Positions 20,319 to 27,852 of a stretch of DNA of 64,000 bases are shown in pieces (positions within the stretch are counted from its first letter, which is position 1; the number at the start of each line of letters is the position of its first letter). The DNA lies in the NCBI GenBank assembly GCA_041658405.1, contig JBBAAG010000008.1, forward strand, positions 8,983 through 72,982. Reading direction: 5' to 3'. The DNA is from Elusimicrobiota bacterium. Lineage in GTDB: Bacteria; Elusimicrobiota; UBA5214; JBBAAG01. A program made the translations under genes and the position numbers. The notes under the pieces are model-generated. The model was given only the letters and a program-made list of their open reading frames with translations, ran no database searches and was not told the DNA's origin.

Positions 20319-20834
20319 ATGTGTGAATTTAAGTATCAAAATATTTTTGCACCAACTATGAATATTTGGATACCTTTTATCTCCGCAATTATCGGTGCAG
20401 TTGCGGGTAGTGTTGCTACATATTGTTTTAACAAAAAATCACAAAAAGTAAATCTTTTTGTTGAAAAAGTGAAAGAGTACAATAAGTTTTATGAGAATCA
20501 TACTTTGACTGTTGAAATCACGGAAAAGCAATGGTATTACGAATCAATAAATTCAATCCCGACTCATGATTATGTTACCGCTGAACACAAACAGATGTTT
20601 TATGATGAGTGTAATTACTGGGAATCGTTAGGGATTTTGTATAAAAATGGATATCTTAATGGGAAACTGGTTAAAGACTATTTTAGCGAGATTATTGTAC
20701 GGCGATATGATGTACTCAAAAAAATAGTGGAAATTGAACGTAAAAGGGCTACAAATAATAAAATATATGAGAACTTTGAATATCTGTACAATAAAATCAA
20801 ACGTGGCGAGAAAAAGGATGGGCGACAAAAATGA
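20319..20834 (+). CDS. small N-terminally membrane-anchored protein, possibly DUF4760-like
   Basis: TM helix IWIPFISAIIGAVAGSVATYCF. The C-terminal block NYWESLGILYKNGYLNGKLVKDYFSEIIVRRYDVLKKIVEIER is reminiscent of DUF4760, from memory only. RBS aaggaaaa precedes ATG 20319. The stop overlaps the mod start (ATGA). Confidence 0.6.
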   Translation: MCEFKYQNIFAPTMNIWIPFISAIIGAVAGSVATYCFNKKSQKVNLFVEKVKEYNKFYENHTLTVEITEKQWYYESINSIPTHDYVTAEHKQMFYDECNYWESLGILYKNGYLNGKLVKDYFSEIIVRRYDVLKKIVEIERKRATNNKIYENFEYLYNKIKRGEKKDGRQK

Positions 20835-25131: not shown

Positions 25132-27852
25132 ATGAGTAACAAAACGATTGACCGGTTAATAATCAATAGCCCGTTCGAAGAACCAAAGAAACACTGGCTG
25201 TATATTAGGGAAAGTCAGGAGTTTGAGTTAAAAGCCGGCCGCCGTCAGTCGGGCTACTGGCGCGCGTCTTTGCGTTCAGCAACTAATTTCGACGATCCAG
25301 GCGAGTTTGTCAAAATTGAACTGGTCAACAAACTTCGTCCCAGAATACAAAAGTGGAGAGAAGAAGGATATCCTAATGTTACGGGGATAACGAAAAAGTT
25401 GTTGGACTACTGGAATGACAGCACAAATAGAGAACAACCTTTTTTTTGGTGTCAGCTTGAAGCTATAGAAACCGCAATTTGGCTCACAGAAGCAAGCCCT
25501 GCAGAGAAACAGGGGATAGAGATTGTCAATGATGGGAGTTTATGGGAACGGCAGTGTTTAAAACTTGCTACAGGTACCGGTAAAACTGTAGTGATGGCAA
25601 TGTTAATCACATGGCAAGCATTGAATAAACTTGCGTATCCCAAAGATCCCAGGTTTTCAAAAAACATTTTAGTAATCGCGCCGGGGTTAACTGTAAAAGA
25701 CAGGCTGCAAGTATTGTATCCGCAAGACAATTATAATTTTTATCAATCTTTCAATATTATCGATTCATCAATGTGGCAGGAATTATTACAGGCAAAAATT
25801 GTGGTGACCAACTGGCATACGTTAGCGCCGATAGATGAAAATTCTGGCCCTAAAGTTGTTAAAAAAGGGCCGGAGAGCGACGAAGCGTTTTGCCGGAGAG
25901 TAATTCCGGACTTTACCGATAAAAACATTTTAGTCATAAATGATGAAGCGCATCATTGTCATCGCCCGTCGGAAGATGAAGAGGATAAAGAAGAAAAAGA
26001 GAAAGCTACAATCTGGGTAGAAGGTATTGATAGAATAAATAAGTTTAAGGGCGTATTGAAAGCTTATGATTTAACCGCCACACCTTTTAAGCCTACTGGA
26101 AAAAATAATCAAACAGAACAATTGTTTACCTGGATTGTAAGCGATTTCGGGTTGAATGATGCTATTGAAAGCGGTTTGGTAAAAACTCCAAAAGTAGCGG
26201 TACGGGATGATTCAACTATGGGGCCTGATATAAAATCAAAACTTTTTCATATCTATCCTTCGGTAAGGGAGGATCTCAACCGTCGCGCGGAACCGCATGA
26301 AGGGTTGCCGGACTTGGTAAAAAACGCAGTTAATATTCTCGGAGCGGATTGGTCGAAAGAAAAAGAAAGTTGGGAACAACAAAATCCGCCTCGTGAAACA
26401 CCGCCCGTAATGATAATTATTTGTAATAGGACTGAAACAGCTGCGCGTATAGAATATTCGTTGGAAAATGGGTATTCTGCAGTTGAAGAACTTGGGGACC
26501 GTAATTGTTTGCTCAGGATAGATCAGGAAGCTTTGGATAAACTTGAAGCTAATGAAGAAATAGTCGGCAAGACAGGTAGGCAACTGGTTGAAGAACAACG
26601 CGAAAAGTTTAATACTGTTGGGAAAAAAGGCCGTCCTGGAGAGAAGGTGCGGTGTGTTATAGGTGTTAACATGTTATCCGAAGGATGGGATGCGCGGACT
26701 GTTACTCACATACTCGGTTTACGCGCGTTTACCAGTCAGCTTTTGTGCGAACAAGTGATCGGCCGCGGGTTACGCCGTATTTCATACGAAATTAATGAGG
26801 AGACAAAGTTTTATGATCCTGAGTATGTAACCGTATTTGGCGTACCATTTACATTTTTGCCGGCGGAGCAGGAAAGCGGCGTTCCGCGGCAAGAGAAACC
26901 AAAGACTAAGATTGGGCCGATTGCAGAACGTAAGGAAATGGAAATAAAATGGCCGCATGTTTTACGTGTAGAACACAAGTTAAGTTATTACTTAGATTTA
27001 GAGTGGGATAAACTAGAAAAACTTACTTTATCACCGGATGATACTCCAACGATTGTAGAAGTCGCGCCGGTAATTGATGGAAAACCAAAGTATGATCAGT
27101 TGTCTGAAATAGATTTAGACCGGCTTTCCACTCAGTCAAGAATGCAAACAATTAAATTTCAAGCTGCAGCGAGGTTGAACGAACAATTTGGAAAAACCTG
27201 GCCTGGCGACGCGGGCAGCCATATAGGCCAAGTTATTCAAATATTTGATAAATTCATAGAATCTGATAGGCTTGACGTAAAACTGCCATTGTTCTACGGT
27301 ACCGAAAAACTCAGGAATATATTAATATCGTTAAACGCTCAGAGAATTGTAAATCATATTGCTGCGTTTATCAGAAGCTCAAGTAAAGAAGATCCAATGA
27401 TAGTTTTAGATCCAGTAAGGCCGATACGAAGTACCGCAACTTCTTTCATCTGGTATACCAGTAAGCCAACGCAACCCATTCAAAAAAGTCAAATTAGCCA
27501 TATTGTAATTGACAGCGGTTGGGAAAAAGTAGGGTTTGAGTTTGAACGTAACAGAATTCCTAAACTGACCTCTTGGTTTAAGAATGATAAACATATCGGT
27601 TTTGAAATTTACTATTTGTGGGAAGGACAAACAAAAACATATTTCCCGGATTTTGTTTTGAAATTTGAGAATAATCAATATTTGATTCTTGAAGTTAAGG
27701 GGCAAATTGTTGATAAAGACAAAGCAAAATGGCAATCGGCAAAAGAGTGGATAAAAGCTGTAAATTTGCATGGCGATTTTGGGACATGGCGATTCGCTGT
27801 TTTAGAGGATCCGAAAGAATTGTTTGATATTATAAACCAAATGCAAGGTTGA
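25132..27852 (+). CDS. res: Type III restriction enzyme Res subunit (SF2 helicase plus C-terminal PD-(D/E)xK nuclease)
   Basis: Walker A is LATGTGKT, motif II is NDEAHHC (DEAH) and motif VI is QVIGRGLRR. The C-terminal YFPDFVL...LILEVKG fits a D...E-x-K nuclease motif. Confidence 0.9.
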   Translation: MSNKTIDRLIINSPFEEPKKHWLYIRESQEFELKAGRRQSGYWRASLRSATNFDDPGEFVKIELVNKLRPRIQKWREEGYPNVTGITKKLLDYWNDSTNREQPFFWCQLEAIETAIWLTEASPAEKQGIEIVNDGSLWERQCLKLATGTGKTVVMAMLITWQALNKLAYPKDPRFSKNILVIAPGLTVKDRLQVLYPQDNYNFYQSFNIIDSSMWQELLQAKIVVTNWHTLAPIDENSGPKVVKKGPESDEAFCRRVIPDFTDKNILVINDEAHHCHRPSEDEEDKEEKEKATIWVEGIDRINKFKGVLKAYDLTATPFKPTGKNNQTEQLFTWIVSDFGLNDAIESGLVKTPKVAVRDDSTMGPDIKSKLFHIYPSVREDLNRRAEPHEGLPDLVKNAVNILGADWSKEKESWEQQNPPRETPPVMIIICNRTETAARIEYSLENGYSAVEELGDRNCLLRIDQEALDKLEANEEIVGKTGRQLVEEQREKFNTVGKKGRPGEKVRCVIGVNMLSEGWDARTVTHILGLRAFTSQLLCEQVIGRGLRRISYEINEETKFYDPEYVTVFGVPFTFLPAEQESGVPRQEKPKTKIGPIAERKEMEIKWPHVLRVEHKLSYYLDLEWDKLEKLTLSPDDTPTIVEVAPVIDGKPKYDQLSEIDLDRLSTQSRMQTIKFQAAARLNEQFGKTWPGDAGSHIGQVIQIFDKFIESDRLDVKLPLFYGTEKLRNILISLNAQRIVNHIAAFIRSSSKEDPMIVLDPVRPIRSTATSFIWYTSKPTQPIQKSQISHIVIDSGWEKVGFEFERNRIPKLTSWFKNDKHIGFEIYYLWEGQTKTYFPDFVLKFENNQYLILEVKGQIVDKDKAKWQSAKEWIKAVNLHGDFGTWRFAVLEDPKELFDIINQMQG

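Follow-up and report, generated by a model that had tools for sequence, protein, structure and literature searches.

A locus in the draft genome of an Elusimicrobiota bacterium (contig JBBAAG010000008.1) places a Schlafen-type gene between the modification and restriction genes of a restriction-modification (R-M) system and a small membrane-protein gene in front of them, and raises the question of whether these four co-directional genes act together. The locus lies in a 64,000-nucleotide (nt) stretch of the contig, referred to here as the window, and all positions are those of the window. The original prediction, made from the sequence alone, had read the genes as a Type III-like R-M operon expanded to four members: a membrane-anchored protein, the methyltransferase Mod, a Schlafen/AlbA_2 protein and the restriction enzyme Res. 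We found instead that the locus is an R-M pair of the BPTD_3080 family with a captured, portable cassette, made up of a gene for a Schlatpase protein with a tail modelled as helix-turn-helix (HTH)-like and the short direct repeats that follow it, and with a locus-specific membrane-protein gene. The observations behind the prediction were confirmed, and its interpretation was partly supported. Our overall picture, to which we give a probability of about 55%, is of a Type III-like R-M pair joined by a PrrC-like cassette for a latent tRNase whose repeats couple it to res; the single steps of this mechanism are held with lower confidence.

The conserved unit is the mod-res pair

The assignment of Mod and Res as a Type III-like pair was borne out by sequence motifs, by Pfam, PADLOC and NCBIfam matches, and by the pairing of mod with res in 47 loci. 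Mod matched Pfam N6_N4_Mtase and scored 505 bits against the PADLOC MTase_III model, and its DPPY motif at residue 154 precedes FDPTCGSG at residue 431 (motif IV before motif I). Its nearest solved structures were Type III Mods (6k0w Mod, 1.2e-15; EcoP15I Mod, 1.9e-13). A C-terminal extension of about 340 residues (about 490-829), without a Pfam match, aligned at full length across the family and may be a Res-docking or dimerisation region. Res matched Pfam ResIII and carries GTGKT at residue 148, DEAH at 271, GRGLRR at 544 and PDF(839)...EVK(854-856); D840, E854 and K856 were invariant across 23 homologues. Against NCBIfam NF046055 (BPTD_3080 family restriction endonuclease) Res scored 982.1 bits over residues 7-903, the cut-off being 800. 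Its match to PADLOC REase_III was limited to 44 residues (40 bits), and its nuclease is closer to TnsA-N than to Pfam RE_endonuc.

The BPTD_3080 Res family comprises at least 7,998 proteins at E <=1e-20. An identity of 64-76% among members from Planctomycetota, Omnitrophota, Patescibacteria, Nitrospirota and others indicates that the R-M family has spread horizontally. A scan of one genome per species yielded 61 related R-M loci, in 47 of which the mod-res junction could be assessed. In all 47 mod lay upstream of res, and in 37 the gap was no more than 40 nt; the conserved functional unit is therefore the two genes mod and res.

Other genes recur around this family. Large open reading frames (ORFs) resembling serine recombinases, with N-terminal YARKS, YTRKS or YTRVS motifs, were found on the minus strand 0.1-1.1 kb upstream of mod in at least six BPTD_3080 loci (L001:4822-6354, L003:5021-6637, L007:1671-3278, L030:5677-7209, L035:1492-3147 and L050:2990-4279), and their recurrence suggests that elements carrying a recombinase move the R-M pair. 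In two Patescibacteria loci a protein of about 730 residues with ResIII and Z1 domains is encoded 26-41 nt upstream of mod (L022:579-2774, L037:2039-4249), which makes this gene another recurrent accessory of the BPTD_3080 family. Some Res homologues carry a fused N-terminal Peptidase_S24 domain (LexA-like, PF00717; P0034, 1081 residues, and P0051, 1072 residues).

The 554-residue protein is a Schlatpase with an HTH-like tail

The proposed AlbA_2/Schlafen identity of the third gene product stood up to analysis. Matches were obtained to SLFN_AlbA_2 (PF04326, 4.7e-15) and HATPase_c_4 (PF13749, 1.2e-9), and the best fold match in Foldseek was the full-length COG2865-type structural-genomics protein 3lmm, with Schlafen N-domains, including that of SLFN13, also recovered. 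The Ex4ExK motif is intact (EKEWVEFK at residues 19-26; E19-x4-E24-x-K26). In 33 orthologues from many phyla E19 and K26 were invariant and E24 was conserved in at least 90%, and the GHKL boxes were invariant in orthologues as well (N-box E299/N303; G1 box D367-x-x-G370-x-G372). The AlphaFold2 (AF2) model (mean confidence, pLDDT, 70.8) contains two helix-helix-helix-beta-beta units at residues 409-461 and 483-553, with a local pLDDT of about 75-90, so modelled that the tail looks like a pair of winged-helix-like HTH domains. Databases often label the orthologues 'transcriptional regulator'. No homology to PrrC was detected, Pfam, NCBIfam and PADLOC scans of the protein returning only SLFN_AlbA_2 and HATPase_c_4. 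Orthologues number at least 7,990 and share about 60% identity between phyla.

With the tail as modelled, this corresponds to the architecture named 'HisKinase-HTH' or Schlatpase-HTH, the commonest among bacterial Schlafens, of which it makes up 19.2% (PMC13056530); the Schlatpase supradomain has been described with an HTH tail, the kind found in more than 90% of Schlatpases (bioRxiv 10.64898/2026.05.29.728809). Bacterial Schlafens were shown to be antiviral tRNases only in 2026. The Ex4(E/D)xK motif is essential for their tRNase defence (PMC13056530), and in a Schlafen-Argonaute fusion the GHKL domain drives ATP-dependent tetramerisation (bioRxiv 10.64898/2026.05.29.728809). The suggestion that the operon carries an added abortive arm would fit both the intact motif of the window protein and this experimental work.

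The combination of R-M enzymes with a membrane protein and a Schlafen-like module had been thought experimentally uncharacterised; as a bioinformatic statement, a claim of novelty no longer holds. R-M-associated proteins with Schlafen, ATPase and DNA-binding parts were described in 2026 (PMC13462974, PMC13056530, bioRxiv 10.64898/2026.05.29.728809); they are tightly associated with R-M, by a mechanism stated as unknown, and more than half of defence-associated bacterial Schlafens adjoin R-M, their activation mechanism being left open (PMC13462974). The window protein resembles these proteins, variously termed pSlfn 'HisKinase-HTH', 'Schlatpase' and R-M-associated Schlafen cluster 7, in its PF04326 and PF13749 domains, its Ex4ExK motif, its tail modelled as HTH-like and its embedding in an R-M operon, which all three sources report from bioinformatics. 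It differs from the characterised examples, which are Ig-like, DUF262, Csx15 and prokaryotic Argonaute fusions. As far as they were searched, the three sources report no functional test of an R-M-embedded Schlatpase-HTH. The link between R-M and Schlafens is thus already in the 2026 literature, and what is new here is the repeat element and the bias in gene order.

Schlatpase genes recur between modification and restriction genes

An insert of more than 300 nt was present at the mod-res junction in nine of the 47 assessable loci. The insert of L013 encodes an orthologue of the 554-residue protein (60% identical), and those of L009, L020, L027 and L033 encode a different protein of about 480 residues, also with SLFN_AlbA_2 and HATPase_c_4 domains. 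Other cargo consisted of an NYN RNase (L011), a Bro-N protein (L044) and small, unannotated membrane proteins (L024, L026). On two cut contigs (L004, L017) an orthologue of the 554-residue protein lies directly upstream of res. Counting the window, a Schlatpase occupies the mod-res slot in eight loci of this R-M family, and because the two subfamilies that fill it are unrelated, Schlafen-GHKL proteins were recruited independently into one junction.

Three different Res families also had a Schlatpase gene between Mod and Res. The downstream gene encodes a 973-residue ResIII protein in a Brocadia locus (L068), a classical Res with RE_endonuc in an Elusimicrobia locus (L071), and the Res of an SNF2-DUF4391-Mod-Res system on Roseobacter plasmids (L156, L157); plasmid pP97_c of Phaeobacter porticola P97 (NZ_CP016367.1, 48223-54642) provides a cultured example. 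Elsewhere the gene follows a complete Type III system (Paenibacillus, L066) or a Type IIG enzyme (Ureibacillus, L065), lies in a mixed defence island (Clostridium, L070), or stands alone among metabolic genes (Omnitrophota, L062).

The Pfam families of the immediate neighbours were then tallied in 80 further metagenomic Schlatpase loci. The downstream neighbour was ResIII in 21 of 64 loci, 11 of the 21 being HsdR (HSDR_N), whereas ResIII lay upstream in only 3 of 68; the upstream neighbours included HsdS (9), Eco57I/MmeI (6), N6_N4_Mtase (5) and HsdM (4). The preferred slot of the Schlatpase gene is therefore after the modification/specificity (M/S) genes and before the restriction (R) gene. 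These data support a recurrent rather than a chance link between the Schlafen and R-M. Of the co-occurrence that the four-gene reading called for, the Schlatpase half was recovered, in the eight loci and two subfamilies given above; the membrane-protein half was not, as described below.

In the Elusimicrobia locus with the classical Type III system, the mod-res gap (L071:5830-9725) contains genes for a 138-residue protein without a known family, the Schlatpase, two small HTH_24 proteins and a DUF1016_N fragment, which shows that several cargo genes can gather in one slot.

Direct repeats follow the Schlatpase gene and, in the window, reach the res start codon

The spacer between the Schlatpase gene and res had been noted as packed with a repeated motif, and TTAGTAATA does occur four times in the window, where 1.3 copies are expected, all within 117 nt of the spacer. 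The repeats fall into two clusters on either side of an imperfect inverted repeat (Table 1). Degenerate units at 25111, 25122 and 25133 in the second cluster cross the ribosome-binding site (RBS) and ATG of res, overlapping its Shine-Dalgarno sequence GAGG (25123-25126) and its start codon (25132).

Among the orthologue loci, a direct repeat array of 11- or 12-nt units begins at the Schlatpase stop codon or directly behind it, with a unit that varies around the core T-T/A-A-G(-A). In L013 the array (TTTAAGTAGAG)x4 fills the whole 46-nt spacer to res; (AATTTAGTTAT)x4 follows the stand-alone gene of L062, (ATTAGAAGTAA)x3.5 is found in L068, and the Phaeobacter plasmid homologue (43% identical) has two copies of TACGAAAGAA at 12-nt spacing in the same place. 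Typical arrays hold 3-4.5 copies. An array score of at least 8 was reached by 58 of 85 non-redundant orthologue 3' flanks (68%) and by 27 of 403 control gene flanks (6.7%), and at a score of at least 12 the enrichment gave a Fisher p of 6e-23. The period was 11 or 12 nt in 49 of the 58 scoring flanks, whereas the controls had no preferred period. The core TTAG/TAAG was on the coding strand in 44 of 59 units, as against 7 of 59 for the reverse complement (TTAGA in 25 units, TCTAA in one). Repeat units were nearly confined to the 3' array region, with three stray copies in 2 of 32 loci.

Arrays occurred whatever gene lay downstream, and long arrays were more frequent before an R-like gene (47%) than otherwise (12%). 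Additional copies of the unit proper to a locus lay closer to the start codon downstream in 7 of 22 loci, compared with 9.5% for foreign units (p = 0.003). A two-cluster layout like that of the window was seen in L139, L017, L135 and L133; a unit adjoins the ATG of the R gene in the window, L139, L135 and L017, and for res itself a unit adjacent to the start codon was seen in the window, L017 and L013.

Head-to-tail winged-helix sites such as the PhoB and PhoP boxes classically have this layout, a conserved 5-bp core that recurs every 11-12 bp with variable sequence in between, and an array of 3-4.5 copies would fit a tetramer. From these features we infer that the repeats are DNA sites for the Schlatpase's own tail and that in R-M operons, where they run into the beginning of the restriction gene in several loci, they would tie res expression to the state of the protein. 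The TTAG(A)-core repeats thus offer a ready candidate target for the unexplained HTH-like tail. No description of such arrays was found in PMC13056530, PMC13462974 and bioRxiv 10.64898/2026.05.29.728809 as far as these were searched, or by keyword in the literature searched.

Other explanations of the repeats were considered and rejected. A chance low-complexity feature was ruled out by the comparison with control flanks, and coding sequence by the 11-nt period, which does not fit a reading frame. A terminator was rejected because there is no hairpin and the array was not called in the terminator scan. Unlike C-boxes the repeats are direct rather than palindromic and lie downstream of a 554-residue gene, and a ToxI-like array is opposed by the 11-12-nt units, the position downstream of the gene and the absence of any Rfam match in the spacer at E up to 1; no structure was predicted there either.

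In the second Schlatpase subfamily (about 480 residues) an inverted repeat, rather than direct repeats, was found right after the stop codon and upstream of res (L009:2837-2925, L020:9842-9900, L027:9913-9960, L033:9902-9960). The palindrome reads TTATACG-N11-15-CGTATAA, or TTACTTG...CAAGTAA in L033, and may be a dimer-type operator with the same role.

The DUF4760 membrane protein is specific to this locus

The predicted N-terminal membrane anchor of the 171-residue protein was recovered as one hydrophobic segment at residues of about 14-36 (Kyte-Doolittle 19-residue window, maximum 1.86). A word-index search of 5.8 billion proteins found only the protein itself, and tblastn against plasmids and phages gave no match. 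An exhaustive HMMER search returned 38 distant representatives (best E = 2e-7), the closest relative being 25-42% identical at an E of about 1e-7. A hidden Markov model scan of 3,643 ORFs in 156 other Res or Schlatpase loci (1.88 Mb) gave no DUF4760 match, the only copy being that of the window. The AF2 model (pLDDT 84) had no meaningful match in the PDB and one match to an unnamed viral protein, and the match to PADLOC PDC-M43A was weak (E = 0.0013, 16.6 bits). Profile comparison with the small membrane proteins in the slots of L024 and L026 gave a probability of 2%. The genes upstream of mod are unrelated between loci, several of them being serine recombinases. Absent from the 156 other loci and with no close homologue, the DUF4760 protein is not a conserved component and is probably a locus-specific passenger.

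The claim that all four genes act as one unit could not be upheld: DUF4760 was not found in the 1.88 Mb of related loci, mod abuts res in 37 of 47 loci, and the Schlatpase also occurs alone. The tight spacing of the genes, on which the four-gene reading was based, had been over-interpreted.

A proposed mechanism

In our proposal the block is a defence islet, gained by horizontal transfer and flanked by the genes of a histidine kinase and a response regulator. Mod would supply specificity and protect host DNA, and Res, a DEAH motor with a PD-ExK nuclease, would cut unmodified DNA. A self-contained cassette, the Schlatpase-HTH gene with its own 11-nt repeat array, would have been inserted at the mod-res junction. 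The Schlafen protein would be a latent, ATP-dependent oligomeric tRNase and a second, abortive line of defence, its latency being modelled on the PrrC anticodon nuclease encoded between hsdS and hsdR of EcoprrI. The repeats would be tandem binding sites for the Schlatpase, and as they also cover the RBS and ATG of res, their occupancy may link res expression to the state of the Schlafen protein. Domain content, conservation of the catalytic motifs, the gene-order statistics and the repeats themselves, with their location, period and strand bias, are observed, whereas the RNase activity and its trigger, the binder of the repeats and the direction of regulation are inferred. The DUF4760 gene would be a passenger, co-transcribed and translationally coupled to mod. 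A more specific version, in which Schlatpase-HTH proteins are parked as ATP-dependent tetramers on about four TTAGA-core repeats, so holding the tRNase latent and gating expression of the restriction enzyme, is speculative and on balance doubtful. If true, restriction and abortive infection would be connected by a kind of regulation not described before, and a portable 'gene plus repeats' cassette would carry it.

The PrrC anticodon nuclease of EcoprrI occupies the slot after M/S and before R, and by analogy the present system most plausibly works like PrrC/EcoprrI. In both, a gene for a tRNA-directed nuclease (here predicted) with a nucleoside triphosphatase (NTPase) domain lies between the specificity or methylase gene and the restriction gene; the order M/S, nuclease, R matches the order bias of the Schlatpase genes, and the window has mod, Schlatpase, res. 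The two proteins differ in that PrrC combines an ABC-type NTPase with an anticodon nuclease domain, whereas the window protein combines Schlafen and GHKL domains of unrelated folds, and in that PrrC has neither an HTH domain nor associated DNA repeats. Masking of PrrC by the R-M complex, and its release by a phage anti-restriction factor, are carried over here by analogy, the latter as the possible trigger of the putative RNase. The shared slot suggests an R-M-guard logic that could be tested with anti-restriction proteins.

The R-M pair itself resembles the Type III systems EcoP15I and EcoP1I: mod is upstream of res, Mod is a beta-class enzyme homologous to EcoP15I Mod with the target-recognition region between motif IV and motif I, and Res is a superfamily 2 (SF2) DEAH motor with a C-terminal PD-ExK nuclease. 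It differs from them in the separate BPTD_3080 family of its Res, in the C-terminal extension of its Mod and in the extra genes in and before the operon.

Weighing the alternatives

Several findings weigh against the proposed picture. Res had no match to Pfam RE_endonuc and found no EcoP15I Res in the PDB by sequence or profile, so that 'Type III-like' is a label of architecture for a Res in a distinct family. A Pfam scan of the last 150 residues of the Schlatpase gave no relevant HTH match. Bacterial Schlafens of the HisKinase(GHKL) type gave no phage protection when cloned alone in E. coli (PMC13056530). About one sixth of the loci of this R-M family carry a Schlatpase, and the cassette also stands alone among metabolic genes (L062), from which it follows that neither R-M nor the Schlatpase needs the other; a functional interaction between them is putative. 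Only about one locus in three has the two-cluster layout that extends to the start codon downstream. Per-column mutual information with repeat class and a Mantel-type regression of repeat similarity on domain identity assigned the repeats to no protein region, the highest z being 1.8 (residues 151-290). A repressor on the start site of res would also be of no obvious help when the R-M system establishes itself in a new host.

In a rival reading the R-M pair, the Schlafen and DUF4760 are independent systems that accumulate in one islet and are co-transcribed by chance, the junction being a tolerated site and the repeats serving the Schlafen itself, for example in autoregulation. The cassette occurs alone and in generic defence islands, the same slot takes unrelated cargo (NYN, Bro-N, small membrane proteins), the repeats are present whatever gene is downstream, and 30% of Schlafen genes in bacteria have no defence gene nearby (PMC13056530). 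Chance placement is nevertheless hard to reconcile with the order bias (ResIII 21/64 downstream, 3/68 upstream), with the independent insertion of two subfamilies at one junction, with the repeat units that overlie the RBS and ATG of res in the window, L017 and L013, and with the excess of long arrays before R-like genes, and we regard independence as unlikely. Less likely still is that Schlatpase-HTH is a transcriptional controller like the C proteins of some R-M systems, with the repeats as operators setting the R:M ratio and the Schlafen domain as a sensor or a vestige. Like those systems, the locus has the gene of a (predicted) DNA-binding protein just upstream of the R gene with putative sites between them, here overlapping its RBS and ATG; two clusters would be compatible with looping by an oligomer, the second subfamily has its TTATACG-N-CGTATAA palindrome at the same place, and the database name 'transcriptional regulator' agrees. 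C proteins, however, are HTH dimers of about 80 residues on palindromic C-boxes upstream of their own gene, whereas the window protein is enzyme-like, has 554 residues and is followed by direct 11-12-nt repeats. Arrays are also present without a downstream gene, a repressor would not give the delay that R-M establishment needs, and the (near) invariance of the Ex4ExK and ATPase motifs across phyla argues for an enzymatic function.

It is improbable, too, that the locus is a genuine four-component system with DUF4760 as membrane sensor or effector of an R-M/Schlafen unit. The ATGA coupling to mod, the single promoter-like site upstream, the restriction of the islet to exactly these four genes, the unrelated small membrane proteins in the L024 and L026 slots and the weak PDC-M43A match would agree with it; they are set against the lack of a DUF4760-like ORF in the 156 other loci, the changing genes upstream of mod, the orphan status of the protein, its unrelatedness to the L024/L026 proteins and the lack of an informative structural match. 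We give slightly less credence again, and very little, to a role of the repeats as RNA, whether as units in the 3' untranslated region that mask the Schlafen RNase, in the manner of a Type III toxin-antitoxin antidote or decoy, or as units that let it repress res translation; a phage-induced shut-off of transcription would then free the RNase. As in ToxIN, the gene of a (predicted) RNA-cleaving protein shares its transcript with a short tandem array: the arrays are certainly transcribed, as they start at or within the stop codon, their orientation relative to the gene is strictly fixed (TTAGA 25, TCTAA 1), and in L013 the array is the entire intercistronic region. The antitoxin RNA repeats of ToxIN, CptIN and TenpIN are 34-45 nt long and lie ahead of the toxin gene, those of ToxIN being structured, whereas the present units are far shorter, lie after the gene, and have neither a predicted structure nor an Rfam match. 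Their 11-12-nt period also matches one turn of the DNA helix and the direct-repeat sites of the winged-helix regulators PhoB and PhoP, and the tail of the protein is HTH-like.

Layout and surroundings of the locus

ORF and sequence reading confirmed the four genes, all on the plus strand, and their spacing: the stop codon of the DUF4760 gene overlaps the mod start in ATGA (20831-20834), the Schlatpase ORF starts at +4 from the mod stop, and 143 nt separate the Schlatpase gene from res.

Table 1 Features of the locus (positions in the window)
Feature	Position	Strand	Details
Nested perfect palindrome	20161-20238	.	14-nt outer arms GCGAGGGATAGCGG / CCGCTATCCCTCGC enclosing a 10-nt hairpin; read from the sequence
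Promoter-like site TAGAGA-18-TATAAT	20265-20294	+	Upstream of the DUF4760 gene; 10/12 consensus matches, consensus match only
DUF4760-family small protein, 171 aa	20319-20834	+	Pfam DUF4760, 2.9e-15; N-terminal membrane helix, all-helical cytoplasmic part
Mod, 829 aa, beta-class N6-adenine/N4-cytosine DNA methyltransferase, Type III kind	20831-23320	+	Pfam, PADLOC and PDB matches
Schlatpase-HTH, 554 aa	23324-24988	+	Schlafen RNase domain, GHKL ATPase and C-terminal tail; Pfam, AF2 model, Foldseek
Repeat cluster 1	24991-25034	+	Four 11-nt units, three intact TTAGTAATAA[A/G] and one degenerate; starts 3 nt after the Schlatpase stop
Imperfect 20-nt inverted repeat	25047-25097	.	75% complementary; between the two repeat clusters
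Repeat cluster 2	25099-25142	+	TTAGTAATAA, CTAGTAATAT, TGAGGAATAA, TGAGTAACAA at 12-, 11- and 11-nt spacing
Res, 906 aa, BPTD_3080-family restriction endonuclease	25132-27852	+	SF2 DEAH helicase and C-terminal PD-(D/E)xK nuclease; Pfam, NCBIfam

The promoter-like site is the single one of its kind ahead of the DUF4760 gene. Terminator-like matches in the four-gene block numbered six, compared with 6.1 expected from shuffled sequence, and the four on the plus strand all lay within the mod or Schlatpase ORF. With one promoter-like site upstream and terminator-like matches at the shuffled level, co-transcription of the four genes is plausible. A consensus scan of the plus strand of the spacer found no internal promoter for res. 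A weak -35/-10-like pair, TTGATA-N15-TAAAAT, was seen by eye within the inverted repeat of the spacer; it was rejected as a res promoter, its spacer length being poor and the consensus scan not calling it.

The four genes are the whole content of the interval between a Cache/HAMP histidine-kinase gene (18289-20154) and the genes for a response regulator and a GAF-GGDEF protein (27916-29444). Given these flanks, the block has the appearance of an islet that landed in a cluster of signalling genes, where it may have split a two-component operon. A search for an island-free relative by exact match to the response-regulator protein returned only the same strain with the same arrangement. The palindrome in Table 1 marks the left edge of the islet, directly after the histidine-kinase stop codon; both arms are unique in the window, where 0.18 copies are expected by chance, and it may be a terminator or an insertion scar.

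Further along the window, the stretch 36574-43340 has a low GC content (0.31-0.36, as against about 0.42) and may be a second mobile or prophage-derived islet. It contains a gene for a metallo-beta-lactamase (MBL)-fold protein with an Anti-Pycsar_Apyc1 Pfam match (36574-37395, minus strand), an ORF6N-domain gene (37647-38012), a Hypoth_Ymh gene (40465-41148, minus strand) and several ORFs without a family, and it is followed by a gene for a ParA-like ATPase (44175-44963).

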